Shown: piece after piece, positions 19,931 to 63,499 of the stretch
Position numbering within the stretch: position 1 is the first letter of the stretch
Layout: the number at the start of each line of letters is the position of its first letter
Assembly (NCBI GenBank): GCA_026770705.1
Contig: JANJGN010000065.1
Span: 806,001 to 870,000, forward strand
Direction of reading: 5' to 3'
From: Isurus oxyrinchus
Taxonomy: Eukaryota
Length of the DNA: 64,000 nucleotides
Position numbers and translations under genes: made by a program
The notes under the pieces: model-generated
What the model saw: the letters and a program-made list of their open reading frames with translations, nothing else
Databases searched by the model: none
What the model was told of the DNA's origin: nothing

Positions 19931-19934
19931 ATCA

Positions 19935-24840: not shown

Positions 24841-25279
24841 CATTTCAATATCTGTCTTGTTTTGGGCATTGATGCTCTATCACATAACAATGGGGTAGAT
24901 ATGAATTTACCAGGAAGTCAGGGCAACATCGTAGGCCTCAATTATATTTTTTCCTCCCATTTGCACCCGCATATATTTCGTGTCAAGATCTAATTAATTA
25001 CAATCGAGGGCCTGTATCGGATCCAATGATATTTTTGCCTATTAATGTATGATGCAATGCTTGGTTTTTTCCCTGGTGATGAGATCATCCCACAAATCTT
25101 TGGTAAATAAGGGTGGAAACTCTGAATGCCGTTGCCTAAATCTTCCAATGTTTCTACAGGCTGGGCTAGAGGACAGGAGAAATGCAACACCTGTTTGTTT
25201 ACTCAAAATAATAAAAAAAGTTGTTGCATGTAATGATAGTCCCAGGATGTTTGGCCAATCAGCTCAACCTCAATAGGGG

Positions 25280-30810: not shown

Positions 30811-31679
30811 ATGACTTAAGGACTATTAATCAGGGTACAAAATATCATTATAGAGTCACCAACTGTTCTTTTTAACTTCACGTCAGTATGAGCAACAAAG
30901 GCACTAAAAACGTTTACAAGTCATGGGGTAGAACTTTGTGTCCCCCTGCCGGCGTGTTTGTGGTGAGTGTAAAATCTGCCAGATGACCATCTGGACGTGT
31001 TCACGCAAGCCCAGACCTCGACACAATTGTACGACGACCCTTATGCAATTGAAGCCATTAACTGGCCAATTTTTGAAAACTTAATGTTTGTCTCCGCCCA
31101 GCCATAATGCTGTTTAGATGATGATTTCAAGTTGGGGTGTTTGGGGGGGGGGGGGGGGGGGGGGGGTGGGGGGTGGGGGGGTGGTGGTGTTGGGGGGAGG
31201 ACTTACGGGAGTGCTGGTGTTCCATCAGCAGCCATTGTCTAATACCGATAGACTGCTCAAAAACCCTCACGCTTGCGGGGTTCCTCCGCTCCCCCGCCTC
31301 TCAACAGACACCCCAAATATGTTTTTTTTCGCCTCCTCCAACCTCACCTCCCCTACGTATCCTGAGAAATCCAAAAACTATTGTTTCTCTAGGGCTAAGG
31401 CCTTGGGGACTTCTTCCGGAACTGGGACTAGCGAAGAGTTGGCCAGTCAGTTTCACTCTCAGATCTCTGAGGCGGGACTTACTCCCGATTTTTCGTCGTA
31501 GGTCCCACCTGAATCTAATAAATGCACGTTGAAACACTGAATGGCTGCCGGACAGGCAGTATCAGGGATATATTGCCATCCAAGAAGACCTGTTCACATG
31601 TGGGTAAGTCTTATGGCACTGCAGTTAGTAAAGATTGCATTGTTTAAATCCCGGAGGGAAACTTGAACAGCTATCATAA

Positions 31680-32427
31680 CCTATATTTTGAATAGGTATT
31701 TTTCAGATGCAGTACTGAATTCATGAATAAGACCATCAAGCTGCAAGAGTATTTTTAATGTAAAACTAAATTAAAAGTTTGTTAAATTAACAACGAATTA
31801 AACAAATAAACATGTCTACAAATTACTAGCGTAATAATGAAGTTAAAAGAATCCCTACAACAATAACTACCACGTAAATCTTCACAGAGGCAATAAGAAC
31901 AGATAGATTTTAAATAGACACCATGCAAAACACATTTGACCTTAAAAAATCTAAATTAGGTTCATTTCAATTTGTTTCCTTTTCAGACAGAGTTGTGCAC
32001 TTACAGACTGATTAGATCTGAAATGTCACTGACAGATGCAAACAAACACCTTTTTGTCTAGACCGAGCTTAATCTTTGAATGTAAATTTTCTATTGTAAT
32101 GTTTAAAAAAGAAACCGCTCTTAGAAATATTCTTTTCATTCCATAAATTTAATTTGTGATATAAACACATTGCGTGGCGTTTCCCGGCTTGGTGCAAGAT
32201 TTTACATATTCTTTTGAATTGTTTCTTCAACTGATGCAAAGTTATGCTTTACTTTCTACACCTCCCGTTTACCATAATGACACCCCAACCTACTATGCAT
32301 CTAAGCAACCAGGCTAGCAGGCTTTAATCCAATTAAGACCCACAGAGCCAAACAGAGGCAGGCTAAAAAAAAATCCAATTTAAAATAATTTCCAATTCCA
32401 GTATAGAAAATAATATTTCTTCATGAC
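31680..32427 (-). repeat. Solo LTR related to the Gmr1-like LTRs
   Basis: Shares aaactaaattaaa, ttgaatgtaaatttt, ggtgcaagatttt, gctttaatccaattaa and the terminal ttcatgaca with 10070-10819 and 20284-20948. No internal coding sequence is adjacent. Confidence 0.6.
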
Positions 32428-33196: not shown

Positions 33197-33314
33197 AATA
33201 AAAATTAAAAAACTGCGGATGCTGGAAATCCAAAACAAAAACAGAATTACCTGGAAAAACTCAGCAGATCTGGCAGCAGACCTGATGAGTTTTTCCAGGT
33301 AACTATGTTTTTGT
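33197..33314. mobile_element. Minimal fold-back Penelope-like 3'-end insertion
   Basis: A reverse arm is joined directly to a short forward arm. Perfect 13-bp TSD aatcaaactttaa at 33184-33196 and 33315-33327. Confidence 0.85.
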
Positions 33315-44035: not shown

Positions 44036-44946
44036 TCATTCTCTCGGTGTATTTATTAATTGCATAATTGACCTAACAGGATATGTTCCCGCCCTTTTGA
44101 ACTGTTCTCTGAATTTGGATTGTGTCACTGCATAAATGAATGTGTTTGTGCAACAACTTACATCTCGCAGCATAAATCCTACTTGCCGAAAAATGTATAA
44201 AGAATCGTTGTAACTATATGGATCTGTTCCTGTAATGTTATAATATAAAAAATCTACCACATTTGTCAACCACAACAGCATGAAGCTGCCGGATATTGTG
44301 AATAGTAAGATCATCGACTTCCTTCTGCTTTCCATTTCTGGGTCATTTTGGCCTTTTCCCTTGCTCTGACCCCTCAATTTCTTACGGACTCGACTGGCCA
44401 CTAAAATATGCCTGACTGTCAGAACATTAAGCAAAAGAATCAAAGTGAATGGGAGCAATGGTGTTAAAACTTTATGAAACCAGTCAAAGCCCACCCACGC
44501 TGGATCTGTATAATAGCTTGGCATATCATGGCAGTACCAGGGTACATTGCCGATTATCTCTCTTGGTTCATATATAAAGCAAAATGGAACGTTTCTTAAA
44601 CAGAACACAACACAAGTTGTTGATAAAACCACAATTGCTGTTTTCTCCGTGCAATATTTAGATCTAAACTTTTGGCAACAGATTGTGACAAATCGATCAA
44701 AGGAAAAAGTGACGGTGAACCAGACAGAACAATCTGTGGCTGCAGAAATCAGGGCAAAGATAACACTACATAACGGAGTGATGTCCAGGAAAGAACCAGG
44801 GAAATAATAATCACGTATCTGATACAAAATGGCATCAGTAATAATTACAAGTAAATCCGCCGCTGCCATTGCTACCAGGTACCTTGTTGTGCAAGTGGAT
44901 AGGCCGCACTTTCCCCTGGACAGGATCAAAATCGTCACTAAATTAA
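44036..44946 (-). CDS. Coding exon 2 of a GPR139/GPR142-like class A orphan GPCR (325 aa when spliced to a 67-nt exon 1)
   Basis: Intact frame covering the end of TM1 to TM7: YLVAMAAADLL (TM2), FSFDRF (DRY), LPF (TM5), NTFIY (NPxxY). Acceptor ttttctctcttacag at 44947-44961, phase 1 (G|TT = Val of VNLV). Confidence 0.92.
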
Positions 44947-45209
44947 CTGTAAGAGAGAAAATTAAAATAGATTGTAAATGACAGAGCAAAGTCTCCGTGT
45001 TTTAGTCGAGGTTGTAAGGCATGATTACATCATAAGGGTGATTTGGTATATTTTAAGGTGCTATGAGTTAATGAAATCACAACCCATCTCCCAGCCAAAC
45101 TCGAATCCATTCACCTCCAGATTAATCTCCGGCAGGACAAGGGGCGGAAAATGCTCCTGGGAAAATATTCTGGCCATTTCAACAGATAGTGTCTTTGGCA
45201 ACATTTGAT

Positions 45210-45660
45210 TTAACGGGGTTTCCAGGATTCACTTCATTTGACGCCGACTGGAGTTGAGAAGAGTAAGATGCTACCTGACTGCAAACTTTTAGAAGCTGGG
45301 GAATCTTCACAGGATGGATGTGGAGAAATTGTTTCTTCTTGTGTGAGAACCTAGAATTAGGAGCCACTGTTTTAAAATAACGGGCCTCCCATTAAAGGCA
45401 GCGATGAGGAGATTTTTTTTATGTATCTCTCAGAGGTTCGTGCATCTTTAGAATTCAATTCGTCAAATGCAGTGGCAGCAGAGACCTTCAATAGTTCTAA
45501 GGCACAGAACAATGGATTTTGAATTAACAAAGGGCTGAAAGGTAAGAGGCAGTGGGCAGAAATCTGGGGTTGAGGTTACAAACAGATCACCCAGGAATTT
45601 ACTAAATACCGGATCAAGCTCGAGGGACTGAGTGGGCTACTCCTGCTAAGTCTTTCGTTA
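45210..45660 (+). mobile_element. CR1 3'-end fragment in the GPCR intron
   Basis: ggatgtggagaaattgtttc...gagaacctagaattagg...ctcgagggactgagtgggctactcctgct. Confidence 0.7.
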
Positions 45661-47071
45661 TTAAGTTTTTATGACATGCTTCAACAGACTAATCATACGA
45701 CACAAAGTCATTCTGAATTGGTGAACGTCTCCAACTACCACTAGATTAGAATCCTTCCACGGTTTCTGAAGAATCAGATCCCCTCCACCTCACCACCCAC
45801 CCCCCCCACCCCCCCCCCCCCCCCCCCAAAAAAAAACGGATCAGCATAACTAATTTTCGCTCGTCGCCCTGACACCCTCGTGGTCGGGCATTCTTCAGCC
45901 TGTCTGTTGGCAGGTGTTCTACTCCTGTAGTAGCAAACAGTCAGTAAAATTATACACTTACAGTCCCTCGTGGTAATAAATTCCCAAAGGGGCTAGTGAA
46001 TGGTCAGAGTAAGGAACGTGCTATATCATGGGCCCAATGGTGTGAAAAGCCTTAAGGGGAAGTTCGATTGATCGATAGGTGAGGAAATACATGGATATGC
46101 TAATAACTTTAGCATGACTGTGAGGGAGAGGCACTGTTGTGGAACATAAACACAGGCAAAATCCATTTGGTACGAATGGAAATTCCTCTGTTGTAAATCC
46201 TATGAAATGAGCTGCAATTAAATTACGAACAATATTCATCAGTTCCTTTGTAACAGTACAGATGATAAACCCGTCTGTTCATTAAAACCGTGCACTATAA
46301 ATTCATATTTAATTTTTGAATGGCATTACTCCGTGCCCGTGGACGCAGCTCCGTTTTAGAAAAATCTGAATTGTATGCTTCTGGGTTTATATGCTTCCCC
46401 TGGTTCACAGAAAAGAACCGATTCATCAAACTTCAGTGAGATTCAGAAGTAGAATAATGAATAACAACAACGCAATCTTACTCCTACATAGCAGTAACAT
46501 TAAAAAATGAACACAATTGGGAAAGGGGTTCTCAACCGAGGGAAGGGGAATAGGCAACAACAGAAACTGTTTGTATTTAGTCAATAATGTGTAACGTTGT
46601 CATTATTCCAATTATTTGAATACGGTACTGCTGTCCAACTCTGCGTCTCTCACTGGACACTTAGCAACTCGGTCTCTTCCTGAAGTTCCATAAGAAATCT
46701 AAAATGTCAATCAGTTTCAATCAATAGACGTATTCAACCAGCAGCAAAAACCTTTCCATTTGCCATCGAGTTATTTAAGAATACAAGGCAGGGTTACTAT
46801 GGTGCGCAGTGATCAATCCCCCGAATGATTAGTTTTTATTAAGCAAAAATGGTGTGTACCATTACACTTGATGACCCGCATTCAGCTCAGTTCCACAGAG
46901 ACACATGCTCTTATTAAAACGTGTCCACTGGGGTCAGACTTTCTATCCCAGTTAATCACCACGCCCAGTGCTGTCCCAGAGGGTTCGATGCTCCGAGCAA
47001 TGATTTGTCTGCGCTTCTGCGTGATTCAAGAACCAAAAGTAATGCACTGAAATCAATTAGCTCATATATCA

Positions 47072-47265
47072 AAAGAAAAACAGAATTACGTGGAAAAACT
47101 CAGCAGGTGTGGCAGCACCAGCACACAAGAAAAGGTTCTGCTGAAGGGTCATGAGGACTCGAAAAGTCAACTCTTTTCTTCTCCACCGATGCTACCCAAC
47201 CTGCTGAGTTTTTCCAGGTGATTCTGTTTTTGCTTTGGATTTGCAGCATCATCAGTTCTCTGTTT
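47072..47265. mobile_element. Fold-back Penelope-like 3'-end insertion in the GPCR intron
   Basis: Short reverse arm plus a full forward arm. 15-bp TSD ttagct(c/g)atatatca at 47057-47071 and 47266-47280 (1 mismatch). Confidence 0.8.
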
Positions 47266-47476
47266 TTAGCTGATATATCAGTTAATCTGCGAGTTGAGAA
47301 TAGATCATTGTTATAAATCGACAATTAAATAAAACAACATAGAAATTTCAGGATACTGACTGAGTAATGTCACGGCATAATGGTATGCACTTTACAAACA
47401 AGTAATAGTCACACGCCAAATGTAGAAACCAATTTATAAGCAGGTTTCAACAATTTAAATGGTGCTTGTCTCTTTC

Positions 47477-47543
47477 CAGGAGCACCAAGGATAACAATGA
47501 TCGTGAAGTATATTGTATAAACACCATGAAATGTTTCCAGCAT
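47477..47543 (-). pseudogene. Proximal GPCR coding exon 1 with a non-canonical donor (GA instead of GT)
   Basis: ATG...MLETFHGVYTIYFTIIVILGAP+G, 67 nt, correct phase for exon 2, but followed by gaaaga rather than gtaaga. Confidence 0.75.
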
Positions 47544-47628
47544 TTACTGCCTTAACTGATTGGCTTCATCGAGCTGCAGACATGTTCGGCCGAAGGTAAT
47601 GTAAGGCGATAATTACTAGCGCCTTTCA

Positions 47629-47634
47629 TTTATA
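47629..47634 (-). promoter_or_regulatory. TATA box of proximal exon 1
   Basis: GTATAAATGAAAGGCG on minus, ~86 nt upstream of the ATG, and conserved in the distal copy. Confidence 0.6.
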
Positions 47635-48059
47635 CCCTTTGAAATCTCAACGGTGGGAATGCTACTGCAATACCGTCAGAATTTGTTTTTTAATTAAATT
47701 GTGAATGGAGAAATGGTAACAGCTGAATAAATTTTCTGTACTGATAGAGTGCATTTATCGCTGATATTTAATTTTAAAATCCCAAATACGAGAATGTTTG
47801 GGGTTATAATAAATAACCATTAAATGTTAGAAGTTGTATAAATCATAAAAGGTCATATTCTTTGAAAAGTCATCAGGTGCTAATTAATAACTTTTACAAT
47901 TCCATTTCTTCACAGTGTTGTGGCCATTCACTAACTGAATTCCTACTGTTTTAAGGGTATTCTGAGTGTTGTTATTTACTACTTCATAATGTAGCTTCGC
48001 TTTCGAATTGCGGTCATTCACTTAAACATACTGAAGTGGGAAATTGTATCACTGGATCA

Positions 48060-49160
48060 CCAAATCATTACAGCATCCTTAAGCGGTAGACCACTTAAAT
48101 CTGAAATAGCAGCTTCATCTAAATTATCAACAGAAACTAATACAGAACTATAAAAGAGAATAGCACATGAAGCGCATGAAGTAGCTGAAGCCATTAGAGC
48201 CCGCAAACGATGAAAAAAAGCAAAACGAATATAACAGCTGAAAGCGACAGTGTCTCCACAAACGTAGCCCCAGAAGCTGACACACATCCTAGAAAAACTA
48301 CATTTTCTGAAACAGTAGCGCAAACTGTTGCATCATAGAGGAAAGGACCCAGATGAAATTATAGGTTCACAAGGCAAAGCATTCTCTCAAGCTACTGCAG
48401 CCTCCAATTCTAATAAACATAATTAATCTTGTCCCTCACTACAGAAAAAAAGAATACAGCCTCTCGGGCGAATGCAGCCGAACAACAACGGAGCCATTTA
48501 AAACAATGTGAAAGAATTAGACAAACTCATATATATACTCAAAGAAATGTGTTCTGTCAGACTAAAATCCGGTTCCTAAATTGGGCACAGATACTCAAGC
48601 TAATATAGTGCTTGAAAAAAATACTGCTGCTCAAACCAAGCCAGTCGCTGCAATCTATAGGAATGCTACAGTCTAATTGAGCTCTTCACGACTAATGCAA
48701 TGCCTGGGTGTAATTCAGAAACTTCCCCTAATACAGGTCGTGGAGCTCATACGGTGATTCAAGTAAATGCAAATTTTCAAAATTATGTAAACCCTCAAAT
48801 CATACAGGATCACAAATAAATAATTTCTATAAAAGCACAGAATTCGCTGAAACTAATACATAACCAGAAAAAAAAAACAAAGACAACGAAGACTCCAACA
48901 ATAAATCTTTCAGCCTTTGGCTTAACACTTCAAATGTTATTAATTATGCCGTTCAATGTACTACAGAGACAACAGCTGACACAGCGTTCAATCAAATGCA
49001 TCTGCATAACCCAAGGAAGAATTTGAAACTAACATAAGCCCTCAAGATAATGTAGCCCCTCGGAACAATGCAATCCCTCAATATGACACTGTCCACCAAT
49101 GTTTCCCTCAAGCATAGAACGCACCTTAAACTAATCTAGTCATTCAAAATTATAAACGCT
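48060..49160 (+). repeat. Highly decayed ~17-bp tandem array (consensus about tcaaactaatacagccc)
   Basis: Recurrent aactaat/ctaata/cagcc words at ~17-nt spacing. A paralogous array lies at ~60060-60900. Confidence 0.5.
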
Positions 49161-49169
49161 GTCTATGTC

Positions 49170-49593
49170 CAAATGCAGCAACAACTGGAGATTAACCAGG
49201 CTTGTGCTGACAAAGACAAGTAACATTCACATCACACAAGTGTCAGGCAATGACAATCTCCAGCAAGATACAAACCAACCATCACCCCTTGATGTTCAAT
49301 GGCATTTCAACCACTGAGTCTCTGGCTGTGAACATCCTGAGGGTCATAATTGGTCAGAAACCGAACTGTGCTCACCACAAAAATACTGTGGTTAAAGGAG
49401 TAGGTTAGAAGCTGGCATTTGTGCGACAGGAGGCTCATCTACTGACTCCCAAATGCCTCTCAACCATATACAAGACAGAAGTCAGGAGTGTGATGGAATA
49501 CTCCCCATTGTCTGGATGACTTCACCTTCCACAACACTCAAGAAGCTTGACTCTGCCTAAGAGAAAGCAACCCACTTGATTGGCACCACATCC
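49170..49593 (+). mobile_element. LINE RT C-terminal fragment (second CR1/L2-group family)
   Basis: Translates as QVTFTSHKCQAMTIS...LSTIYKTEVRSVMEYSP. Confidence 0.7.
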
Positions 49594-49986
49594 GCACCTT
49601 ACAGCCTTCCGGTCTGAATATTGAATTCAATAACTTTAGGTCGTGAGCTCCCTCCCCTATCCCCACCCCCTTTCTGTTTCCCCCTTTTTTTCCCCTTTTT
49701 CTTTTTTTTCCCTATAAATTTTATAGATTTTTCTTTTCCCACCTATTTCCATTACTTTTAAATATTTTAAAATCTTTTATGCTCCCCCCACCCCCACTAG
49801 AGCTGTACCTTGAGTGCTCTACCATCCATTCTTAATTAGCACATTCGTTTAGATAATATCACCAACTTTAACTTTAACACCTATGTGTTCTTTTGTCCCA
49901 TTGTCACTGACATCTTTTGATGATCTGCTTCTATCACTGCTTGTTTGTCTACACAAGCACCTCTGTCTCTCTCTCTCTCTCCGCCG

Positions 49987-50017
<31 letters not shown>

Positions 50018-50200
50018 CCACACACCTTAAACCAGCTTATATTTCAACTCTTTCCTGGACTCGAAATCAAGTTCTGTCGAAGGGTCATGAAGACTCGAAA
50101 CGTCAACTCTTTTCTTCTCCGCCGATGCTGCCAGACCTGCTGAGTTTTTCCAGGTAATTCTGTTTTTGTTTTGGATTTCCAGCATCCGCAGTTTTGTTTT
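49594..50200 (+). mobile_element. Young single-arm Penelope-like 3' end
   Basis: Near-identical to the arms of 23748-24840 and ends in ...ggatttccagcatccgcagttttg. Confidence 0.85.
50070..50108 (+). ncRNA. Minimal type I hammerhead ribozyme-like motif (variant core CUGUCGA)
   Basis: AGUU-CUGUCGA-A-GGGUC(augaa)GACUC-GAAA-CGUC^-AACU: stem I AGUU/AACU, stem II GGGUC/GACUC, palindromic ACGU stem III. Further copies at 9326-9364 (+), ~9197-9235 (-), ~23811-23849 (-), ~24705-24743 (+), ~47134-47172 (+). Confidence 0.6.
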
Positions 50201-52094
50201 GTCATTATCTAGGTAACATCCGTCAGCCCTTCTCCCTCGAATATATTTGTCCTGCTACATTTGAATTTATTATTTCGCTGGATGTGGATGTTTCTGACTC
50301 GGCAAGCGTTTGCTTACTATTGCTAATGGCTCACCAGCATCTTCCTTTGGAAGGTGGTGGCGAGTAATTTTCTTGATGCGCTGTGGTGTAGGCTATCCAG
50401 CAGTGCTGTTAGGATGTGATTCCAAATCAGGATGGTATGTTGCTTAGAGATGAACATGCACTTGGTCGCTTTCATGTGCACCTACAGTCCTTGCTTAACT
50501 AGGCGACAGAGAATCTATGTTTGGGAGGCGCTGTTGAAGGAGGCATGACAAGTGGCTACAATGCATCTTGTATATGGCACCATCTTGATCGCTGGTGCAA
50601 ATGCCTTTAATTCAGCTGCCTTGACACTTGACTCTGGAAATTGCTGTTTACCCATCTCTACCTCTGTACTCCTTTAATATGGCCCCTGGAAGTTCAATGC
50701 AAATGACAACTTTGTTGATTACAGCTATTTTAATTATTTAATATTTAAATTTTCCTTGCTATCATGTCACTCTCGTTACAGAGTTACAAGTAATTGGTAA
50801 CTTGGGCATCGTATACATTACATAGGGGAACAGGCTCAAAGTTTGGATGGAGAGTCATGTTGGATTCGAAACCTTAGCTCCGGTTCTCCCTCCACAGATG
50901 TTGGCAAGCCGATTTAGTTCTTAGAGCTCTTTCTGTTCTTATTTCAGATCCGCCGTATTTTTTATGATTGTTATAGAGTATCAGTTTCCTTTAAATAAGC
51001 ATGATAATGGCCCACTTGTTGAAACTGCAATGTATGCAAGTTTAATTTCTCTATTTCAATACAACTCATTATCCAGCTGTGACATTTAATGCCTGTTGAT
51101 GTTTGCAGGTTATTTCTTAAATTCCTATAGGATGGCTGTTTCTCTTATCGCTCAATCAACGTTTGTGGTGTCCATAAAAATGTTAGCTAATGTGCATATT
51201 TTACTAAAGGGAATCAAAGACTCCAGCGTAGCTGCATTTGAGAGCCAAAGGATTTACTGCAACAAGCAGAAGGAGAGTTCAATAATTTGAATGTAGTGAC
51301 AGTATCATCCTGTTGTATACTCGTCAGTGGAAGTGCTAAATAGGAAACAGAGCAACATCAATGTACTTCAAGTTATTATCGTATTACCTAAGAACTTCCC
51401 ACAGCAGCAAGCATCAACTCAACTGGAAAACATGCCGGCAGCTCCAGGGAGTTGGTACACTACTGACTGGAAGCAATAGTTTCCATTTTGTACCACCCTG
51501 GTTAGTGATACATAGTCAATAAAATTTTACACTGAAAGATCATCCGAGTAATACATGTACACTGCTGTCAGGTGTTCCACTCCGGATAGTGACACACTCA
51601 GTGAAATTATATAATTACAGATAGTCCTCGTAAAAAGGAATCTCACACTGGAGTGCGGGGGTGTTCAGATGGTGGAATGAACTAGAACATGGAGCAGAGC
51701 ATAGGAAATGATTGTTCGCAGCATGTGGATAGGTACTTGAGAGAGAAGAATTTGATATGTTGATGACAGAAAAATGCACAGAATGCAGAGATTGACTTTG
51801 GAGAGATTATCCAGTAGAGCATAAAAACATGCAAAATCCAGTTGGTATCAGTGAGACCTTCATGTTCTGTATTTTCCAGGGGTTAATGACGTAACTTAAT
51901 GAATAATCGCAGTCAGCAGTTATTCCACTACTGTATGGGTATCGAATCAGTGCGCTCAATAAACAGTGCACTATTTACCCATTTTATATTGTTAGCTATA
52001 TTATTCAGAGCCCCTGGAATTAGCTGTACATCATGAAAATAAGGAAGGATTTTTTTCTGGCTTTATTCATCTCTCATCTCTCACTGGAGGACAT

Positions 52095-53380
52095 GGTTTC
52101 ATCAAGGGGAGGCCTTGCCTGACAAATCTGCTAGAATTCTTTGAGCAGCAAACGAGTAGGTTAGACAAAGGATAGCCAATGGATGTTATCTACTTGGATT
52201 TCCAGAAGGCCTTTGACAAGGTGCGAAACAGGAGGCTGCTCAGTAAGATAAGAGTCCATCGTGTTAGAGGTAAGGTACTAGCATGGATAGAAGATTGGCT
52301 GTCTGGCAGGAGGCAGAGGGTGGGGATAAGGGGGTTCATTCTTAGGATGGCGGCTGGTGATTAGTGGAGTTCCGTCGGGGTCAGTATTGGGACCACAACT
52401 TTTCAATTTATACATTAATGATTGAGATGAAGGAACCGAGGGCATTCTGGCTAAATTTGCAGATGATACAAAGATTTGTGGTGGAGTGACAGGTAGTACT
52501 GAGGAGGCGGGGAAGCTGCAGATGGGTTTAGACATGTTAGGAGAATGGCCAAAGAAGTGGCAGATGGAAGACAACGTCGGGAAATGATAGGCCATGCAGT
52601 TTGGTAGGAAGAATAGAGGCATAGATTATTATCTAAATGGGGAGAGAATTCAGGAATCTGGAGTGCCAAGGGACTTTAGAGTCCTAGTCCAGGATTCTCT
52701 TAAGGTTAACTTGCAGGTTGAGTCGGTAGTTAGGAAGGAAAATGCAAAGTTGGCATTTATTTCGAGCGGTCTAGTATCTAAAGCATGGATGTGCTGCTGA
52801 GGCTTTATAAGGCTCAGGTAATACCACATTTAGAATATTGTGAGCAATGACGAGCCCCGTATCTCAGAATGGATACGCTGGTCCTGGAGAGGGTCCAGAG
52901 GAGGTTCATGAGAATGATGCCAGGAATGAAAGGTTTAACATATGAGGAACGTTTGAGGACTCTGGGTCTATACTCGATGGAGCTTAGAAGGATGAGAGGG
53001 GATCTGATTGAAACATACAGAATTCTGAAAGGCCTGCAGAGTGGACGTGTGGCAGTTATTTCCATTAGCAGGAGAGACTAGGACCCGAGGGCACAGCCTC
53101 AGAGTAAAGGGAAGATCTTTTAGAACAGAGATGAGTAGAAAGTTTTTTTAGCCAGAGAGTGGTGAATCTCTGGAATTCCTTGCCATAGGAGGCTGTGGAG
53201 GCCAGGTTATTGAGTGTATTTGAGGCCGTGATAAATACGTTCTTGATTGGTAAGGGGATCAAAGGTTACTGGGAGATGTTGGGAGATTGGGTTGAGAAAC
53301 TTATCAGCCATGATTGAATGGCAGAGCAGACTCCATGTGAGGAATGGCCTAATTTCTGCTCCTATGTCTTATGATCCTAT
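52095..53380 (+). mobile_element. Relatively young 5'-truncated CR1 LINE
   Basis: MDVIYLDFQKAFDKV, SGVP.GSVLGP, KFADDTK, LERVQRRF.RMMPGMKGLTYEERL, and a 3' tail ...gctcctatgtcttatg. Confidence 0.95.
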
Positions 53381-53779
53381 TAAATCATTGAGCTACCGAC
53401 AAAGTTAATTGTAGAATGAAGTATAAAAACTGATTTTCCTTTAAAAACTTCCTCACCAAACGATAAGCAGTTGCAAAAAGTAGAATAATGAATAACAACA
53501 ACGCAATATGCATTGTGCATATAGTAGCACCAACAAAATGAGCGAACTTAGCCAAGACACTCCCCATTGATGGCAGGGGAATAATCAGCAGCAGGCAGTA
53601 TCTGAACTTAGTCTGTGAAGAGTAAGTTCGTCATTATTCTGTTTAGCTGAATAGCATAAAACTGGCCTATTAACCAGTTAACATCTCTCTCTGTTGCCGC
53701 AGTTCAATAAGAAACCAAAATGTCAATTTGTTTGAATCTGTTAACTTATTCAACCGACAGCATGTGAGCAACCGTCCAT

Positions 53780-56700
53780 ACGGGTTAGGAACAGGAGTGG
53801 GTCATTTGGTCTCTCGAGCCTTCTCTGCCAGACAATATGACCATGGTGAATCTAACTGCGTTCTGAGTTCCTCATTCCCATCTATCCCCTACAAGCTTTG
53901 ATTCTTTTTGCTAACAAGAATCTTCAACTCTGCCTTAAAATTAATCATTGCCTACCTTCTGAGGCAGAGTTCCAAAGTCACATAGCTCTCAGAGAGAGAA
54001 AAAAAAAACTCTTCTTCTCTTTGCTATAAGGGTGAACCTTAATTTTAACAGTGTACTCCCTCGTCCTGGACCCACTAACAAGAGGAAACATCCTTTCCGC
54101 ATCGACCTTGTCAAATCCATTCAGGATTTTATCTTCATAAAGTCACCACTCACTCTTTGAAATTCCATTGGAAACAAGCCAAGCAAGCTCAAACCAATTA
54201 TCTTACGACTGCCTGCTCATTCCAGATAACAATCCAGTACACTTCCTCTGAACTGCTTCCAGCGAATTTACATCCTTCCGTCAATAAGGAGACCAAAACT
54301 GCAAACAGTTTCCGACATGCCTTCTCGCCAATGGCCTGTTTAACTGACCATGGTATCCTTACTTTAATGTTGAATTCATGTCGCAATATCGTATATCATT
54401 CCAGTAGCCTTCTTAATTGCATGCTAAACCTGCAGCCAAATGTTTTGTGACTCCTGCACGAGGACACATAGATACCTGTGCACCTTATCATGCTGCAGTT
54501 ATTCCCTGTTTACATAACACTAGGAATGCGTCTTCTTCCTGCTAAAGTGAACAACTTCACGTTTTCCCACATCATAATCCAGCTGTCAGGTGTTTGCCCA
54601 CTGAGATAAAATAGCCATATCCGTGTGCAAACTCCTAACATCTTCTGCCGAGCATTCTTCCCCGCCTATCTTTCTGCCGTCTGCAAATTTAGCTACCAGA
54701 GACTCTTTCCACTTATCTAAGTAATTGATGTAAATTGAAATGAAAAAGATTCAGGGCTTAGCACAGATTCTTGCCAGTCTGAAAAATGCCCGTTTATGCA
54801 TACGCTCTGCTTTGTGCCAGCAAGCCAATCTTCCAACCAGGCTAATATGTTACCTCCGACGTAATGAACTTATATTTTATGCATAAACTTTGTTTTGGCA
54901 CCTTAGTAAATGCATTCTGGAAACACAAATACAGCACACTTACAGGCTCAACCCTTTCAATTGCACAATTTAATCATTCAAAGAGCTCTAATTATTTAGT
55001 TAAGCATGGATTCCCTTTCCAAAAACAATGCAGATCCTACACAATTACCTTGAGCTTTTCTAAGTATTTAGCTATAACAACTTAAATAATTGACTCTAAC
55101 ACCTTCCCCACAACAGACGTCAAGCTAACTAGCCTATTGTTTCCAGTTTTCTGCTTCCCTCCCTTCTTGAATAGAGGGGTGATATTTACTAATTTCCTGT
55201 CTGTTGGAACCTTTCCAGAATGCAGGAAATTATTGAAAATTAGAACCAAATCATTTACTCGCTCATTATCCATCGTATCTAAGACCCAAGGGTGAATCCA
55301 TCTGAGCCGGGACACTTTTCAGACCGCAGCTGCATGAGTTTGTTCAGCAGTTCTGCACTAGATATTACAATTTCGCCAAGTTTCTGCCATTCTCCACCTG
55401 CTGACTTACAGCTAGTACAGGAATGTACTTTTTATATATCCTCAAAACGGAAGCAAACTACTTGTTTATTTCATCCACCATGTTTTTCATTATACTATCA
55501 AGTCCCCACTGTCAATGACTGAAGGACGAACACTCAATAAGCCTACTCTCCTCTTTTCTAAATAACTGTAGAAACTAATATAATTTCTTACATTTTTTGC
55601 TGGCTTCCTCTCAGGCTCTGAATTCTATCCCTTGATTCGCCTTATAGTCATTCTCTGCCGTTCATTATATTCTGACAAATCATCTATCATGACACACACA
55701 TTGGCGCAGTAATATGCGTTTTCCTTACGTGTGAAGTGTGCCCTTAATTTTTTTTTTTCTGTTAACCATGGAAGGTCGGGATTCATTTCAGAATTTTTAC
55801 CAATATTAGTCATATACCTATTGTGAGTATTCTGAAATATTCTCTTCAATGCCTTCCATTGCGTATCTGGTTATATATCCTCTAGCTTAATATCACAGTT
55901 CATTTCAGTCAGCTCAGTATTCTTCCCCATATAGTGGAACTTTTCCCCCTAAGTTTTGCATACTTGTCTTCTCCCTTTCAATCTAGATGTAAAATTAAAA
56001 TCATAATATATTCTGTACTACCCAAGGTGCCTTTACACGGCCGTCACGAATTAACGCTGTCATATTACACAATACTTAGTCTAATATAAACTGCTCTAGG
56101 TTTTTTTCCGAAACCTGCCACTCGAGGAAACTTTCGCTACCAACTCCCGCTGGTGGCTTCATTCCTGTACTATTCCTCATGTGCACCCAACCCGATTCCA
56201 AAACCTGAACTCTTGAACCAAGGTCATCACTATGCTTTCTACAAATGTCATCCTTGATTACAAATAATTGGCCTCCAACTTTGTCTGTTGACGGTCATAC
56301 GCCTCTCCTTATTCGCAAGACAATTCATGTAATCTTGCATCCAGGTGTCCGTGATGGGTATCCAATCACAGTTATTTACATCAATGCGTATCTTCGGTTC
56401 CTTTATGTTGTTATGAATGCTACAAGCATTCAGACACAGGGCTCTGCACAAAAGGTCATACGGATTCAAAACATTAACTCTTTTCTCTCTCTTTCACAAT
56501 TGTTGTCAGGACTGTTGGGTTATTTCAGCACTTATTTGTTTTTATTTCAAATGCAGAGCCTGTAGTTTAGTCTTTGATTTAACTGTGCCAAAATTAGCCT
56601 GCTCTTTCTGCATTTTTTTTTTTGCTGTCCTATTCGCCATACTCTGACTCTCATTTCATATGTTACTCTTTGCCTCACATGCCTTCTCTCTGCTTTTTGA

Positions 56701-57600
56701 TATACCAATTCTCAATTTCCCTCTATGAATTTCCCAAGAACACGGACCTCAGTTCGGTTCGCTTGCACATTGACCCACCAGCAAAACCCCCACTTTCCCC
56801 AGTTCTTGTGCCAGTGCCGCAGAGACTGAACCAATTTCTCCCACACCACTCTTGAGCCACATATTCATCTCCTTAATTTTATGTACGCTGAGCCAATATT
56901 CATGCAGCTCAGATAATGTTACAGCACTTATAATATTTGAGGTTCTGCTTTTAAATGTATTGCTGAGCTCCTCATACTCTCTATGCAGACAATCTTCCTG
57001 TTTCTACCTATGTTGTCATGACCTACATGAACCAGAACAATTCGATCTCACCCTCCCACTGCCAGTCCCTATCCAGCTCTGTGTCGCTGTCCTGGACCTT
57101 GGCACTGGGCAGACAACATAGCTATATGAACGCTCCCTCTTTGCAACAGGGAAGCAAATTGCAGTCTCCAGACAGCCTTCTATTACCACTTCATTCTCTT
57201 TTGCTCCCCCCGCATGTACCACGGTGCCTTGGTCAGTTTGCACACCCACCCTGCAGCACCAATATCATTCAACCTAGCTGAGATAACCTCAAACATATTG
57301 GACCATTGTAGAGGCTCACACTCCTCCACTCCTGCTTCTGGGTGCCCTTACTTTACGCACTCGCAGTCACACCCACCTGCCCCTGGAAACTGAGCAAATC
57401 AGAAGAAACTATCCTAAGTGGCGTGACTATCTCCAGCTATCAAGCATCCAGGTACCTTTGCCCCTGTGATGTGTCTCAGTTTCTACAAATCAACCTCAAT
57501 ATCAATGACACTGAGCCGAAGTTCATCAAACAGCCATCACTTCCTGCAGAGTTATTTGCCCTCAATCGCAGTGTTATCCAGGAGCTACCACAAAAATGAG
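53780..57600 (-). mobile_element. Older long CR1 LINE (ORF2 and 5'/ORF1 remnants)
   Basis: Minus strand NITPLFKKGGKQKTGNNRLVSLTSVVGKVLESII (55082-55315). The 3' UTR lies at ~53780-53850 and decayed ORF1-like sequence at ~56600-57600. Confidence 0.75.
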
Positions 57601-58263
57601 AACCACAAATGTTATAATCGCTGGTTCATTACCTGAGCTGCATGTAAATAAGTTTAGCGTACATAAAAATAAGGAGATGAATCATAGCTCAAAGACTGAA
57701 GTGGGTGAAATTTGTTCAGCCATGATGCCCAGTCACTTCACTTGTCCGGCCATCTTTAATCTGTTTTAATTAATTAATGTATTCTGTTAATCACTTATTC
57801 ATCTTTTAGTTAAATAGCTTATTCGCTTTCCCAACAGTACCTGTATTAGTTTAAACCATAGCTATGGAATGGCACATAACCACTCAGCACATACTCACCA
57901 AACAGTTAGCTCATTTCTCTGTAGTAAAGCCGGAACCAAATCCTATGGCGTGAGAAGTTTGGAAAAAAAAACACATCCCCCCGTCCCACCCCGCCCTTCA
58001 CCGAACTGCCCTCTCACCAAATTCAAAGCCTTCAATTGTTACCTCAGCTGCACCGTTTATTCGATGGCTAAACTAAAGAAACCAGAATTATCTGTAAATT
58101 GAAGTGGGCCTATAGTAACCAGGTTCAAGCAGTTACCTGATTAACTATATAGATCCTAGGGGTGAAAGTGGGGTCACGGTGTCTAAACTGCGAGCAGAAC
58201 GAATTTAGCCTGATTAAACACTATTTTCTAGTTACTGCTAATTACAAAATCGATTAGATTATA

Positions 58264-58403
58264 ACTCTTTCGAGTACAAACCCATTTCCATCTGTTTCAG
58301 ATGAAGTTACATTGTTTCATAGTTTGCCATTGTGAGATTTGAACTCTCAATCTTGGGGTTACAAACCCAGTACCATAACCACTAGGCTATTTAGGTCAAG
58401 CCC
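58264..58403 (-). mobile_element. 140-bp tRNA-derived SINE (tRNA-Thr(TGT)-like head) with 15-bp TSD
   Basis: On minus: A-box TAGCCTAGTGG, anticodon-like loop TTTGTAA, B-box GAGTTCAAATC. Perfect TSD atcgattagattata at 58249-58263 and 58404-58418. Confidence 0.8.
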
Positions 58404-59616
58404 ATCGATTAGATTATAGGAACAGCATTTAATAAACAAATTATGGCTTAAAACTGCCTCTCCCACCAAACTCCAAACCTTCACTATTTTAGTTCAGCTG
58501 CACGCCGTTGGCCTTGGAGGCACCAAAGAACCCCGGACGTATCGTAAAATTAACTGGGGCGACAGCAAACAGTGTCAAAATGTTAGCAATTAACTGGACA
58601 TTCCCTGCAGCTGAGATAAGATTACCATGTCATACTGCAACAACGAAATAACTTAGTCTACTTAAGCAGCACTTTCCAATTGCTGTTAATCACAGACCAG
58701 ATCATATTTTAAGAGCAACATTTAAGAATAAGACGAACATTTAAAATCCCCCTTCACAACAAATTTCAAATTTTCAGTCAATTATCTCAGCTGAACTCCA
58801 TTTGCCTTAACGGCAATAAAGAACTCTGAATTAATAATAAACTGAACAGGGGCTAAATAAACGAGTTTCAAACAGCTTGTTAATTAACTACTCAGCACGT
58901 ACAACTGATACTGAATTTACTGCGTCTAAACAGCAATAAGTAAAGAACTGAGACACTGTCCACAGTATTTTACAATTGCTTCTAATTAAAAACGAGGTTT
59001 GATTTTAAGAGCAAAATGTAAGAACAAAATTCAATCGTAACATTCCCTACAAAGGAAAACCTCAGGTCTGCACTCAGGTACCTCAGCAGGACTCGGGTTT
59101 CTTTGAAAAAAACCCTGTGATAACTCCCTATTTTGTCAAACACAATGAAATTTCCATGGCAAACAGACATCGGCCACCTGAAGTCATGATTTTAAAGAAG
59201 TGTAGTTTATTCCATTCCAATCGGTGACCCATAATCAGTTCAGGTCTGAAGTGACACATGCTGCCAGTTAAAAAAAAAGACGGGGGTGAAACGTTTCACT
59301 CCAGTTAGTCAGAAAACTCAGCAGAGTTCCCCTTTCCATGTAATGACTTGCTTGAACTTCCATAAGATTCAACAGCATGCAATATTGCCCTCAAATCAAT
59401 TAGCTGATAGTACAATTAATCTTTAGTTCGGGAGGAGATAATTATTTTCAATAGCTACAATAAAATAAAACCACATACATAATTCAGGATATTGACTTAA
59501 TTTAAATAACGTCATTGCAGAACGTTCAACAGTTGACCTTGAAGTATGTGACAGACCAAGGATGGAACCAGATTTACAAACAGATTTACACAACTAAAAT
59601 GCTTACTGTAGCTTAC

Positions 59617-59683
59617 CAGGTATACCAATGATAGCAATGATAATGTAGCATGTTTTATCAATAGTGTGAAAAGTTTCGAGCAT
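59617..59683 (-). CDS. Distal GPCR coding exon 1 (intact)
   Basis: ATG...MLETFHTIDKTCYIIIAIIGIP+G|gtaagc: 67 nt with a canonical donor, phase-compatible with exon 2, giving the TM1 motif GIPVNLV. Confidence 0.85.
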
Positions 59684-59770
59684 TTTGTCCCTGAATTGAT
59701 TTTTCTTTTGTGCTGCAGGCACCGTCTCCCCCCAAAAAACTATGTGCTGATACATTATCGACGCCTTTCA

Positions 59771-59776
59771 TTTATA
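59771..59776 (-). promoter_or_regulatory. TATA box of distal exon 1
   Basis: GTATAAATGAAAGGCG on minus, ~88 nt upstream of the ATG, with the same core as 47629-47634. Confidence 0.6.
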
Positions 59777-60059
59777 CACCTTGAGATCCCCGCTGGGACA
59801 CTCAGGTTGCAACATCGTTCAAAATGTTTTTTTCTTTCAAATTTGATCAAAAATATTATGACAGCTGAATTAATTCGCTACACCGATAAGTTATGTTTAT
59901 CGCTGAGACTTAATTTATGAAAAGCATGGACAGGAATATTCTGGACCACGTTAAATAACCATTGAATATCGGAAGTTGGATGGTGCTGTCTCTTCATACA
60001 TCATTTTAGAACCCAGCTTGATTGTGTTTTGGCCACTCGTGAAACTAATGCAACACTCA

Positions 60060-60900
60060 CAATAATGCCGTCCTTGAAACTGAAATCCAAGCCTTAACTC
60101 GTTGGTAGAATCTCAAGTTAATATATTGCTTAAAGAACATACTTGCCCCTCCTAATACAGCCGGAAAATTCTGGTGCAGCACCTCGATCAAGTACAGCTC
60201 TCATTTACAACAGCCCAATCTAATCCATCTAATACAGGCCGTGGAAATAATAAACTAATTCAAGTAAATACACAATCTCAACATAAGGCAACTCTCGATT
60301 AATATAGGCCACAAATCAATTAACTCAGGAACAAGTCTTCCATTCCCTCAAACTAATACAGAACCAAAGGAATGAAGCATTTCAAAAAAAGACAAGAGTT
60401 CAAGAGTTTTCAGCCTTATTATTACTGCACACTTTGCTAGTAAAGTCTTTCAATTTAGTAGAGACAGAACATATCAAAAAGCCATTGCACTAATTCGTCC
60501 TTTTAAAATAAGAGTCGTAAACTAATATATGCTCAGAAAGAAATGCTACTCCTAAGAACCATAAAGTAAAAAACTCAGTTATACACTGCCCATCAGCCTA
60601 ACACAGTTAGGTTAATAGTTCCTCAAATTGGTTCAAACTCTAAGAAAAATGCAAGTGCATTCAAACTAGCAGCATGTCGTCAACCTGATGAAAGCCCTCG
60701 AGCTCATGCATCACCTTCAACTAATAAAGCCTTTCAATATGCTGCAGCATTTGAGACAAACCTAGCCGCTCAAAATCGTAAAACCTCTCAAAATAATGCA
60801 TACGATGAAACTAATTTAAACCTTAAAAGTAATACATTATTACAAAGCTGAAGAGGTACCAATTTAATATGGATCCATTAACGCATCATGAAATCAAAAT
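60060..60900 (+). repeat. Decayed ~17-bp tandem array, paralogous to 48060-49160
   Basis: Recurrent ctcaaactaatacag / aaactaat words. A smaller patch lies at ~61510-61720. Confidence 0.5.
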
Positions 60901-62446
60901 GTTACCTTAATATTAATTGCCCTGCCGTTCGGTTGTTAAAATAATATTTCTTCAGTATGGAAGAGCTGATGCAAAATCCTTGGAGGTATAGAATATAATT
61001 TAAAAGGACATTTTATTTTGTGAAGAACTTAGGCTTGAGAAAATTCCTTTGTGTACCCAATCCTGGATTTGATAAGATTGATTCTCAGGTTCCCCATATC
61101 AAAAACAAACTGCCTAAGTTGGATGATGAGACTGTTCCTGAAACAGATAAGCCAAGAGGTGAGTGAGTGGGTTTGGGGCAAGAACGAATTGGCTCTACTC
61201 TTTTGGTTTCTCCCAGGTGTAATTGTAAACGGGAATGACAAATAATGTAATGACTGATTGCGCCCTGCCCGGTGAAAACTGAGGAGGCCTTCTGATGCGG
61301 ATTCATCCTACTTTCCACTTACTTCTTTGCCTTACAGATGTCCAAGGAAGATGACGAGACATCGTTATGAAGAAACGACCATTCGTGTAGAAAGCAGCTA
61401 ACGTGCTCATTCCAGTTTCTATCCGTCCTTGCAATCTGCATTTGCTCAAACTTCGCAGCTTTCCCAGATAGTATTTTTGTTCGGTCTGTTCTGATTATGA
61501 GTTGACAATTTAACTATCACTCCTTAATTAACCATTTATGATTCCTCGGCCCTTTCTGGTACACTGTAATCCCTGATTAAACCCACATCTTAAAGAAAAT
61601 CCCCCTTAAAACTAATTAAGTCCCTTCAAATTATGCAACCGTATAGCTCACCAGTGTAACGTAGCCTCTGAAAATAATACGGGTCATAAAATGAATACAG
61701 TGCCTCCAAGGCAAGCATTTCCTTGAAGAAGTAGACAATAGTCTACTTCAGGCTTACAAGACACGAAGCTAGATGAAAGTCATGATACGAATAAGGCCAT
61801 GTAATAAGGTATAGAGTAATATCGCTGAAAGCAAGACACAAGTGCTAAAAAAGATGAATAACTGTTTTATTTCAGGGCAGTTATTTATTTCAAACACTGA
61901 CCTTACTAGAGAAGCTCAAATCGCAAGAACGTTTAAAATCCGAATGCAAACAAATAGGCAGTGCGGATTCAAGGGAGAAGTGTGACATATAACATGTGGG
62001 TAGTCATCTCAAAACTAGACCAATGGTCAGTAATCTGTGATAAACCTGTGTGCCAGTGCCAGCACAAGCGTGGTCAGATATAGATGTGCCGCCAGTGCAA
62101 TTATGAGTGAGGTTTCTGATATGACTCTATTTTCTGTGTAAGTGCAATACTGTACTTGAATCTTAGCGTCAGCAAAAATCGACGCCAGAGATATAATTGG
62201 ATGCGTGGAGGAATTAAGTGTGAGATTAGGGATATTTCAGCAAGGAACGTGACAGTGTAAGCAGGGCGATGAGTGGATGAATAATTAAATCCCCTGCGAG
62301 TTCGGTAATGTTGTCTTATGGCCAGTGGCAGCACAATTAGGCCGTTACAGGAGATGAATTATTTTTGACAATAAAGCTAGTTCAGGGAGGTTTAGCAATA
62401 TTGGTGAAGCCACTGATATGTCTGAAATGATATTAACAATAGTAAT

Positions 62447-62687
62447 AAAAACAAAAAAAACTGCGGATGCTGGAAATCCAAAACAAAAACAGAATTACCT
62501 GGAAAAACTCAGCATGTCTGGCAGCGTCGGCGGAGAAGAAAAGAGTTGATGTTTCGAGTCCTCATGACCCTTCGACCGAACTGAGATTGGTCGAAGGGTC
62601 ATGTGGACTCGAAACGTCAACTCTTTTCTTCTGCACCGATGCTGCCAGACCTGCTGAGTTTTTCCAGGTAATTTTGTTTTTGTTTTG
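62447..62687. mobile_element. Fold-back Penelope-like 3'-end insertion
   Basis: Arms meet at cttcgacc-gaactgagatt-ggtcgaag. Perfect 14-bp TSD ttaacaatagtaat at 62433-62446 and 62688-62701. Confidence 0.88.
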
Positions 62688-63499
62688 TTAACAATAGTAA
62701 TGATGTGTGATAGAATCAGATGTGCTTTAAGACCCTAGGTAAAGCCAGTGCTAACAAGGATCAGTCATGAATATACAACGAGACATTGCTGTGTCTGGAT
62801 AGGCAGTGAAAATGCGAGGGAGCTACATTTAGTGGTCTCTCTAGGTAGGTTACGCACATTTGAATTAACTGATTGGTATATCTGGATGGACGCCGAGTGA
62901 AGATGACTGATCAGTGATAAACATCGATGAATATTGGAAGTATGAGTGAGGGCCACAATGCTCCTGCATAGGTATGGATAATACTGGATGTTTCGTCAAG
63001 CAGCAGGATAGTCGCTGAGCGTAATTTGAAGGCTGCTTACTTTTATCATCCCAATGAAATCTCTGGTGTAAACGCTGCACTGAAATAATGAATATAAAAC
63101 GCACATATAGCATTTATTTGTCAAGAATGGAAAACTATCCCTATTTCCCATTCTGCAGTATTCGTCAGAATTGGCCACAACTTCCTCTTTAAACACCTCT
63201 TCTGCATTGTTCATGCAGCTTTGCAAATTATCCCTCAAACCTTAGCCGGAAAATTACTTGCACTAATTTAGCTTCACATATCAATAACGTTACTTTGGCA
63301 ATCTGGGACATCAATTTTACAATAAATGCTACTCTTCAGTAATATCCACTGAAAGAAAAAACATTAGCTTGTGCGCTGGTGACTCTGCTTTATCTCTCCC
63401 ATAACTGTTTGGATTCTGTTCCCTTACGCTTATAGCGAACATGGGCGTCGTCCACACCTGTCCTCTATCCGTCAACGCTACTGAATGGAATGGTTCACT

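Follow-up and report, generated by a model that had tools for sequence, protein, structure and literature searches.

Two paralogous first exons facing one receptor body at a shark GPR139-like locus: a possible promoter and first-exon swap by complementary loss

Duplicated first exons in other systems and at the shark locus

Fusion genes that arise by unequal crossover in tandem families include the Lepore-type globins, and a chimeric globin fusion gene has reportedly been described in sirenians (PMC6526914). In Arabis alpina, PEP1 has a second set of promoter, first exon and partial intron 1 arranged in tandem 6.3 kb upstream, and cDNA data show that the upstream exon is spliced over the downstream exon to the common exon 2 (PMC3527215). 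Tandem first exons also characterize the variable-first-exon clusters UGT1, GCNT2 and protocadherin alpha/gamma, where relic first exons occur (PMC1885805).

A window of 64,000 nt of Isurus oxyrinchus DNA, in which all receptor units under study lie on the minus strand, contains two paralogous first exons of 67 nt in the same phase upstream of a single second exon (Table 1). The initial annotation had described these exons together with their peptides, a GA at the proximal donor as opposed to GTAAGC at the distal one, a conserved TATA block at each exon and an intact exon 2, and all of these features are present in the sequence. Both TATAAA boxes lie within a run of 16 identical nucleotides, and the proximal donor differs by a T-to-A change at its +2 position (47475). 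When exon 2 is joined to either first exon, a stop-free frame of 325 amino acids is obtained, and splicing from the distal exon would remove an intron of 14,670 nt.

The likeness to PEP1 is close, as a copy of promoter, first exon and a partial intron 1 lies kilobases upstream in both cases, with 12.1 kb between the copies in the shark as compared to 6.3 kb at PEP1. However, both first exons are used at PEP1, whereas the proximal donor of the shark is broken and the shark copies are old, with flanks that are 65-70% identical. The arrangement may have arisen by partial duplication or by full duplication followed by deletion, and the sequence of the window fits both. The locus resembles UGT1, GCNT2 and the protocadherins in that first exons of the same frame follow one another in tandem ahead of a common exon and each carries a conserved promoter motif, but those clusters combine many large variable exons encoding the specificity domain with shared constant exons, whereas here two exons of 22 codons are found, one of them dead, in a family that duplicates whole genes. 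As in Lepore-type fusions, the 5' part and promoter of one paralog would be joined to the body of the next paralog, although in the shark the joining would occur by splicing across a retained dead 5' end and not by crossover within homologous sequence.

Table 1. Positions of the features of the receptor locus and of the collinear duplicate blocks within the window.
Feature	Positions	Strand	Description
Distal first exon	59617..59683	-	67 nt, phase 1, canonical donor G|GTAAGC
Proximal first exon	47477..47543	-	67 nt, phase 1, donor G|GAAAGA
Exon 2	44036..44946	-	frame open from the middle of TM1 to the stop codon; 7TM body of the rhodopsin family without signs of decay
Proximal intron	44947..47476	-	2,530 nt, ends in the exon 2 acceptor
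Distal promoter and leader	59684..59981	-	TATAAA at 59776
Proximal promoter and leader	47544..47839	-	TATAAA at 47634, intact
Far-upstream region, distal unit	60042..60595	-	homologous to 48523-49098 (E 2e-22 by blastn and nhmmer); globally aligned at 65.5% identity
Far-upstream region, proximal unit	48523..49098	-	homologous to 60042-60595
Surviving intron of the distal unit	51562..59616	-	collinear with 47476-45904 of the proximal intron; broken up by two inserts
Junction zone	49099..51561	.	intron end, exon 2 and 3' flank of the distal unit missing; young repeat copy at 49594-50205
Duplicate block, upstream	49098-48523 vs 60595-60042	-	nhmmer
Duplicate block, promoter/exon/intron	47839-47266 vs 59981-59400	-	nhmmer
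Duplicate block	47066-46812 vs 59409-59169	-	nhmmer
Duplicate block	46746-46423 vs 53762-53453	-	nhmmer
Duplicate block	46429-45904 vs 52105-51562	-	nhmmer
Distal-intron insert 1	about 59169-53764		in-window repeat matches
Distal-intron insert 2	53450-52105 (approx.)		in-window repeat matches

Extent of the duplication and the missing distal body

The intron duplication noticed earlier (46447-46746 against 53478-53762, 66.8% identity) turned out to be longer than first seen and belongs to a series of collinear blocks with nhmmer E-values of 1e-11 to 1e-27. Shuffled controls of the global identity reached 0.61-0.63 because gaps are free, and the significance of the duplication therefore rests on the nhmmer E-values. 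By these alignments, the distal unit represents an old duplicate, collinear at 65-70% identity and cut off inside its intron. The two inserts in this intron resemble, we presume, pieces of retrotransposons; a Pfam search with three open reading frames from the distal-intron stretch returned no domain. The sole Rfam match was borderline and tRNA-like.

In agreement with the initial annotation, neither a second exon 2 nor a remnant of one was detected between 47.6 and 59.6 kb by tblastn, by nhmmer or by a six-frame search with the family HMM (best HMM match in this interval 3.3 bits, E 1.3). The same searches do detect a decayed paralogous body on the plus strand (9565-10069 and 20940-21247), and an exon-1 HMM matched just the two first exons of the window (23.3 and 12.1 bits; next 2.5). 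At this locus, promoter, exon 1 and a portion of intron 1 are present twice and exon 2 once, and the junction zone exhibits no homology to the end of the proximal intron or to exon 2. The plus-strand body was considered as the inverted lost partner of the distal exon and rejected, as a repeat at 9100-9369 carries its own target-site duplication (TSD), the DNA upstream of 9565 lacks similarity to either intron and this body is far more decayed.

The young repeat in the junction zone shows 1 difference in 137 nt from its consensus and lacks a TSD, while TSDs of 14-16 nt are carried by 5/6 copies. These features may indicate a recent loss of the distal body or its absence through misassembly. If the repeat marks a deletion, the loss would be too recent to account for the decay of the proximal unit, and the intact distal exon would require no selection. 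Mismatched flanks of the repeat suit an assembly collapse as well as a true deletion, and collapse, with the distal gene being whole, is one form of a technical or allelic explanation; in its other form, the A at 47475 would be an assembly error or a segregating allele, the proximal gene normal and the distal exon a plain orphan. The intact proximal TATA block and the single base that separates the proximal site from a good donor are in agreement with such an origin, but the window contains no N, exon 2 shows no frame errors, the repeat measures just about 600 nt, and the residue changes and upstream ATGs of the proximal unit described below are beyond the reach of one wrong base. We consider this explanation unlikely.

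State of the two 5' ends and of the receptor body

Splice sites were scored with a matrix of approximate, rounded frequencies. The distal donor reached 9.6 bits, a score equalled by one of the 851 GT sites in the interval, and the exon 2 acceptor scored best of the 996 AG sites between the distal donor and exon 2. If position +2 is left out, the proximal donor scores 7.5 bits as compared to 7.8 bits for the distal one. Cryptic in-phase donors at the proximal exon (0.7, 2.9 and -0.4 bits) were discarded as weak and damaging to TM1, as use of either upstream one removes the GxPxN motif and use of the downstream GC site inserts 20 residues; unspliced read-through from proximal exon 1 meets a stop at 47411. 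Within the long distal intron, 7 AATAAA hexamers precede the proximal promoter, and 17 pairs of acceptor and donor might form pseudo-exons.

Use of the proximal GA donor in a non-canonical GA-AG intron would leave the proximal gene working unchanged. GA-AG introns are known in vertebrates (FGFR, ITPR1; PMC4176328), and the remainder of the proximal site is a good donor, but in FGFR GA-AG splicing depends on a GT located 6 nt upstream (PMC4176328), whereas the nearest upstream GT lies 9 nt away here. GA donors of the copepod Eurytemora and of Oikopleura are preceded by AG and followed by A; the proximal donor has TG before and A after it and does not conform to these flanks. Since the paralog has GT, the GA is not conserved between the copies. 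A literature search on +2 donor variants gave no match. Use of the GA donor appears highly improbable.

The proximal 5' end carries three lesions, in the donor, in the residues of exon 1 and as two upstream ATGs. Among eight exon-1 columns conserved in at least 75% of the relatives, five are changed in the proximal and two in the distal exon. At least five changes occurred in one of 80 family models (the odd-looking P0046) and in none of 28 held-out models (P about 0.012, given the body's own rate), whereas at least two were found in 17/80, and by this measure the distal first exon is typical of the family. The ATGs of the proximal leader (47583 and 47569) are out of frame and each opens a uORF of 5 codons; the distal leader has no ATG between TATA+30, where the start of transcription was placed from TATA spacing, and the start codon. 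For the proximal 5' end, a rough likelihood without calibration has its maximum near d=0.1-0.15. The exon comprises only 22 codons, and 5/52 members equal it in the drift-heterogeneity statistic; with close relatives removed, 6/52 or 5/45 members did so. The exon-1 dN/dS between the copies is about 1.0 (13.5 non-synonymous and 4.5 synonymous differences).

Twelve of 162 near-invariant columns are changed in the body, a number reached by 10/28 held-out members, and the ratio of changes at invariant versus variable columns (0.097) is matched or exceeded by 20/52 members. When the first 52 relatives served as reference, the body looked deviant, with a likelihood gain reached by 0/52 and 1/45 members; these relatives had been chosen for closeness to the query, and the excess disappeared when held-out members were used. 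Decay of the body was rejected as largely a selection bias of this test, as more columns deviate in the complete Mustelus model P0043 (18/166) and 10/28 held-out models match the body. A body starting without a first exon was also dismissed, as the frame is open from 45001 and has no Met before the acceptor. The probability that a neutral body remains open is 0.11 at d=0.03, 0.023 at d=0.05 and 0.001 at d=0.1.

These values bear on the explanation that both units are dying fragments of a birth-and-death cluster, namely a first exon orphaned through a recent deletion and a gene that its donor mutation killed recently (or a body that a second deletion fused to a dead 5' end), with distal splicing absent or unselected. 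Decay does occur in the cluster, as in the multiply broken paralog at 9565-21247, 56/120 database models lack an exon-1-like motif at their end (by loss or mis-annotation), a body can survive neutral drift to d of about 0.03 (P 0.11-0.46), the heterogeneity statistic is unexceptional and the repeat lacking a TSD suggests a recent deletion. However, proximal exon and leader are changed beyond drift of 1-3% while the body carries no decay, and we reason that one lesion giving rise to the other is more likely than two independent recent lesions that happen to complement and adjoin each other. The explanation is possible, if somewhat unlikely.

Proposed takeover and the receptor family

The reading that we put at about an even chance is a swap of promoter and first exon by complementary loss in a birth-and-death cluster, like that of plant PEP1. 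In this reading, complementary halves would have been lost from an old tandem pair of shark GPR139-like receptor genes with two exons each, a state that the anatomy of the locus displays. The upstream gene would have lost its intron end and coding body, and its promoter and same-phase first exon, with their own acceptor gone, face the acceptor of the downstream gene. Transcription from the distal TATA promoter would then be followed by splicing from 59617 to 44946 over 14.7 kb, giving the in-frame receptor with TM1 intact. The proximal promoter and first exon, once redundant, would have drifted, with donor loss, residue changes and upstream ATGs as the visible decay, and the body, because it is without decay, was presumably kept under selection. 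The outcome would mainly be a promoter swap, in which the downstream body, predicted to be the ligand-binding part, acquires the control region and 22 N-terminal residues of the upstream gene. The takeover suggested in the initial annotation gains some indirect backing, as decay is stronger at the proximal 5' end than in the body, the 5' end of the distal unit looks like that of other family members, and the distal donor and the acceptor of exon 2 are top-scoring in the interval; recent pseudogenisation or an error at 47475 keeps a share of the probability. Counting against it are the proximal TATA block, unchanged over 16 nt, the unexceptional drift-heterogeneity statistic, the exon-1 dN/dS of about 1.0, the hexamers and potential pseudo-exons of the long intron and the young repeat lacking a TSD.

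Should the distal splice occur, annotation would label as a splice-dead pseudogene what is a working chimera on its neighbour's promoter, and the locus would be an intermediate between whole-gene duplication and variable-first-exon clusters. The gene fusion as such is of an already known kind, and its biological effect is probably small, as one locus among very many paralogs is concerned and only 22 residues change.

The predicted product is a class A GPCR (7tm_1 73.3 bits, Pfam cut-off 30.5, profile positions 2-260 of 260) of a large shark family automatically named 'probable GPR139'. A family search gave 2301 hits; the best 120 were all from sharks, 74 of them from one species. Among the matches listed, the best identity to chondrichthyan 'probable G-protein coupled receptor 139' models was 76%; these have a first segment of 22-23 residues, as in this receptor, and no annotated model of exactly this gene occurred among listed matches of 166-529 (best 76%) or 530-2000 residues (best 74%). 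A first segment of 21-26 residues ending in G-x-P before a conserved Asn, found in 52/120 models, together with the high identity places the receptor in this expanded family, where the intron position of relatives was deduced from protein models and the body groups with P0006, P0043, P0010 and P0011.

A further reading is a variable-first-exon cluster of the UGT1 or protocadherin kind, in which several promoter-exon cassettes would serve one body and the proximal cassette would be a relic; the initial annotation had offered a variable-first-exon arrangement as its alternative. Two TATA-bearing first exons of like length and frame do face one body in tandem, just 4.3 kb are visible upstream of the distal exon so that more cassettes could exist beyond the window, and exon-1 and body identities correlate weakly across the family (Mantel r 0.18; 19/2000 permutations as high). 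However, the window contains one canonical donor and no second spliceable first exon, the cassette amounts to 22 residues and is not a specificity domain, and bodies have themselves been duplicated in large numbers, as the above hit counts indicate, apparently together with their own first exons. Body identity was at least 0.9 in 8/3160 pairs, all eight with first exons 70-95% identical, in a database whose clustering at 90% hides isoforms with the same body. This alternative is not supported and seems very unlikely to us. A broader idea, that first exons within the family are interchangeable owing to the conserved phase-1 intron in TM1 and a common TATA promoter, so that cluster deletions routinely reassign bodies to neighbour promoters or several promoter-exon cassettes share one body, would make the locus a caught example of recurrent re-assignment of expression among receptors; we regard it as speculative and quite improbable.

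Human GPR139 (PDB 7VUG, 9M42) was the best solved-structure match, with 35 bits (E 8e-8) to the human GPR139 chimera as compared to 29.8 bits for the prolactin-releasing peptide receptor. Vertebrate GPR139 is highly conserved (PMC12208981), and a match of 35 bits therefore indicates a GPR139-related expanded family and not the conserved ortholog. A literature search covering main texts and few subscription journals found no work on this shark family, and term searches in PMC8455134, PMC11979771 and PMC12208981 gave no match; the family may be listed in gene-family tables among the supplements to shark genome papers. According to a whale shark genome paper (PMC8455134), GPCRs are relatively few in cartilaginous fishes; set against this statement, a family with 2301 hits may matter more than the locus itself.

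Two first exons and one receptor body

The paired 67-nt first exons of equal phase, each with a TATA block, and their contrasting GA and GTAAGC donors reported in the initial annotation are all present in the sequence, TATAAA lying about 92 nt upstream of each first exon inside a 16-nt run identical between the copies. Exon 2 was said to be intact and indeed provides 325 codons without a stop when joined to either first exon. The proposed tblastn search for a second exon 2, or a remnant of it, between the two first exons found none, in agreement with nhmmer and a family HMM; the same searches do pick up a badly decayed paralog on the plus strand. An in-frame ATG at 59755 (minus strand), 21 nt past the start of the distal TATA, would add 24 residues if transcription began so early, and is probably upstream of the transcription start site.

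Features of the receptor locus and its surroundings
Feature	Position	Strand	Remark
Distal first exon	59683-59617	-	67 nt, phase 1, donor G|GTAAGC
Proximal first exon	47543-47477	-	67 nt, phase 1, donor G|GAAAGA
Exon 2 (body)	44946-44036	-	325 codons with either first exon
Decayed receptor body	9565-10069 and 20940-21247	+	stops, frameshift, split by ~11 kb of inserted DNA
Broken LTR retroelement	~10100-20900		inside decayed paralog
LTR-like repeats	10133-10742 and 20287-20872		68% identity; lone piece near 31611-31828
Aspartyl protease	16586-16933		Pfam
RNase H	18662-18991		Pfam
Integrase	19410-19928		Pfam
Young repeat copies	9100-9369, 23748-24844, 33197-33314, 47067-47268, 49594-50208, 62444-62690		mostly inverted (palindromic) insertions
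tRNA match, distal intron	58332-58389	-	29.1 bits, cut-off 29

Collinearity between the two units begins about 0.9-1.5 kb above the start codon, takes in the promoter and first exon, and reaches 1.6 kb into the intron. This homology, which includes the duplicated intron sequence noticed initially, forms five blocks of 65-70% identity (JC 0.39-0.48), and two inserts break it up on the distal side, within the intron. It ends at 51562 (45904 in the proximal intron), and 51561-49099 contains no match to the proximal intron end, exon 2 or the 3' flank; the distal unit is therefore an old paralog without acceptor and body. It may have arisen by partial duplication or by full duplication and later deletion, and the window fits both.

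Scored on a matrix built from rounded frequencies, the distal donor reached 9.6 bits, a value matched by one of the interval's 851 GT sites, and the exon-2 acceptor ranked first of 996 AG sites. Above the proximal promoter the interval also has seven AATAAA hexamers, and it contains 17 acceptor-donor pairs exceeding 7 bits; such sites are frequent in long introns and so neither prove nor block the distal splice. Unspliced read-through from the proximal exon meets a stop at 47411, and in-phase cryptic donors there are weak and their use would remove or interrupt the TM1 motif. Functional GA donors are described in PMC4176328 and PMC7072748 for FGFR genes (GT 6 nt upstream) and for two invertebrate species (upstream AG). 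The proximal GA donor has neither a GT 6 nt upstream nor an upstream AG context, and we give hardly any credence to its working.

An expanded receptor family

The body is a rhodopsin-family receptor. A protein search over 3381 candidates returned 2301 proteins at E ≤0.001. Every one of the best 120 is a shark model and almost all bear the name 'probable GPR139', with a top identity of 76%; Heterodontus francisci supplies 74 of these 120 (counted from the listing). Rays and skates occur among the longer matches. Judged by sequence, the receptor is assigned to an expanded GPR139-related family and not to a conserved GPR139 ortholog, because human GPR139, though the best solved-structure match, scores only 35 bits. 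Cartilaginous fishes have a very large number of these receptors, which are only weakly like human GPR139; our impression is that the abundance of two-exon paralogs differing at the N-terminus resembles chemosensory repertoires. No paper on the family was found in the main-text literature searched.

Among the best 120 models, 52 are plain, with a start of 21-26 residues and then the body. Of the 120, 64 close with an exon-1-like motif; the other 56 do not, which may reflect real loss or overlooked short exons. At least 15 of the 120, including P0005, P0012 and P0020, appear to read through the intron pyrimidine tract instead of a first exon, which suggests that the family's short first exons are frequently overlooked by, or absent from, automatic annotations. 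The body clusters with the models P0006, P0043, P0010 and P0011, and P0010 and P0011 share their six starting residues with both first exons of the locus, which places both exons in the body's own subfamily.

The initial annotation had offered a variable-first-exon arrangement as an alternative. UGT1-type clusters share their constant exons among numerous large first exons (PMC1885805). The receptor family multiplies whole genes. Bodies at least 90% identical occur in 8 of 3160 pairs, and in all eight the first exons are 70-95% identical. A variable-exon system is quite improbable. We go no further than disfavouring it, because exon-1 and body identity correlate weakly across the family (r 0.18), the database conceals isoforms >90% identical and the window ends just 4.3 kb above the distal exon.

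Uneven decay and a possible takeover by the distal exon

Taking the 52 plain models as reference, eight exon-1 columns are conserved (in ≥75% of relatives), of which five are changed in the proximal and two in the distal exon. Such levels (≥5/8 and ≥2/8) are reached by 1 and 17 of 80 models, respectively, once 28 of 32 models from a second query, found partly via first exons and hence biased toward typical ones, are added. The proximal leader contains two out-of-frame ATGs, the distal one none, and by eye the leaders of models P0073, P0079 and P0082, translated in frame, allow no ATG at matching places. That the proximal GA is an error or an allele we consider unlikely.

The body at first seemed deviant against the reference set, but those models had been picked for their similarity to it. 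Compared with held-out models it is unremarkable: 12 of its 162 near-invariant columns are changed, a level that 10 of the 28 reach, and its changes sit on variable columns, as they do elsewhere in the family. For a body drifting neutrally, the probability of staying open would be 0.11 after 3% drift and 0.001 after 10%; a likelihood curve for the proximal 5' end, rough and uncalibrated, has its maximum at around 10-15% drift. A decayed proximal 5' end with an undecayed body is the asymmetry predicted by takeover, in which transcripts from the distal promoter would be spliced from 59617 to 44946. Against takeover, the exon is short, a drift-heterogeneity statistic as large as the proximal exon's occurs in 5 of 52 members (6/52 or 5/45 without close relatives), the proximal TATA block is unaltered, and the first exons are 73% identical, barely above their flanks, with dN/dS of about 1.0 on few sites. 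The reading as dying fragments we regard as doubtful though a real possibility. To functional takeover we give an even chance on the sequence evidence; these weights are judgements, not computed values.

The arrangement belongs to an already known kind. The closest documented parallel is PEP1 of Arabis (PMC3527215): its promoter, first exon and part of the first intron are present in a second copy 6.3 kb upstream, which splices to the common exon 2. The shark locus differs in its dead inner copy, and would otherwise operate as PEP1 does.

Repeats and other elements

A young palindromic repeat occurs in six copies, five of them flanked by target-site duplications of 14-16 nt. The junction-zone copy (~49594-50205/50208) has no such duplication, and 1 of 137 positions in it departs from the head consensus. 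Against takeover, this copy may mark a distal deletion (recombination between two copies, or assembly collapse); if so, the loss was recent, the intact distal exon requires no selection and the proximal decay was otherwise caused. The repeat family presumably resembles Penelope-type elements. Between its arms, the copy at 9100 carries a 79-nt piece that matches 10393-10471, some 1.1 kb distant, at 98.7% identity.

No first exon was found upstream of the decayed plus-strand paralog. The retroelement within it may be Gypsy-like or retrovirus-like, and the borderline tRNA match is probably a tRNA-derived SINE head.
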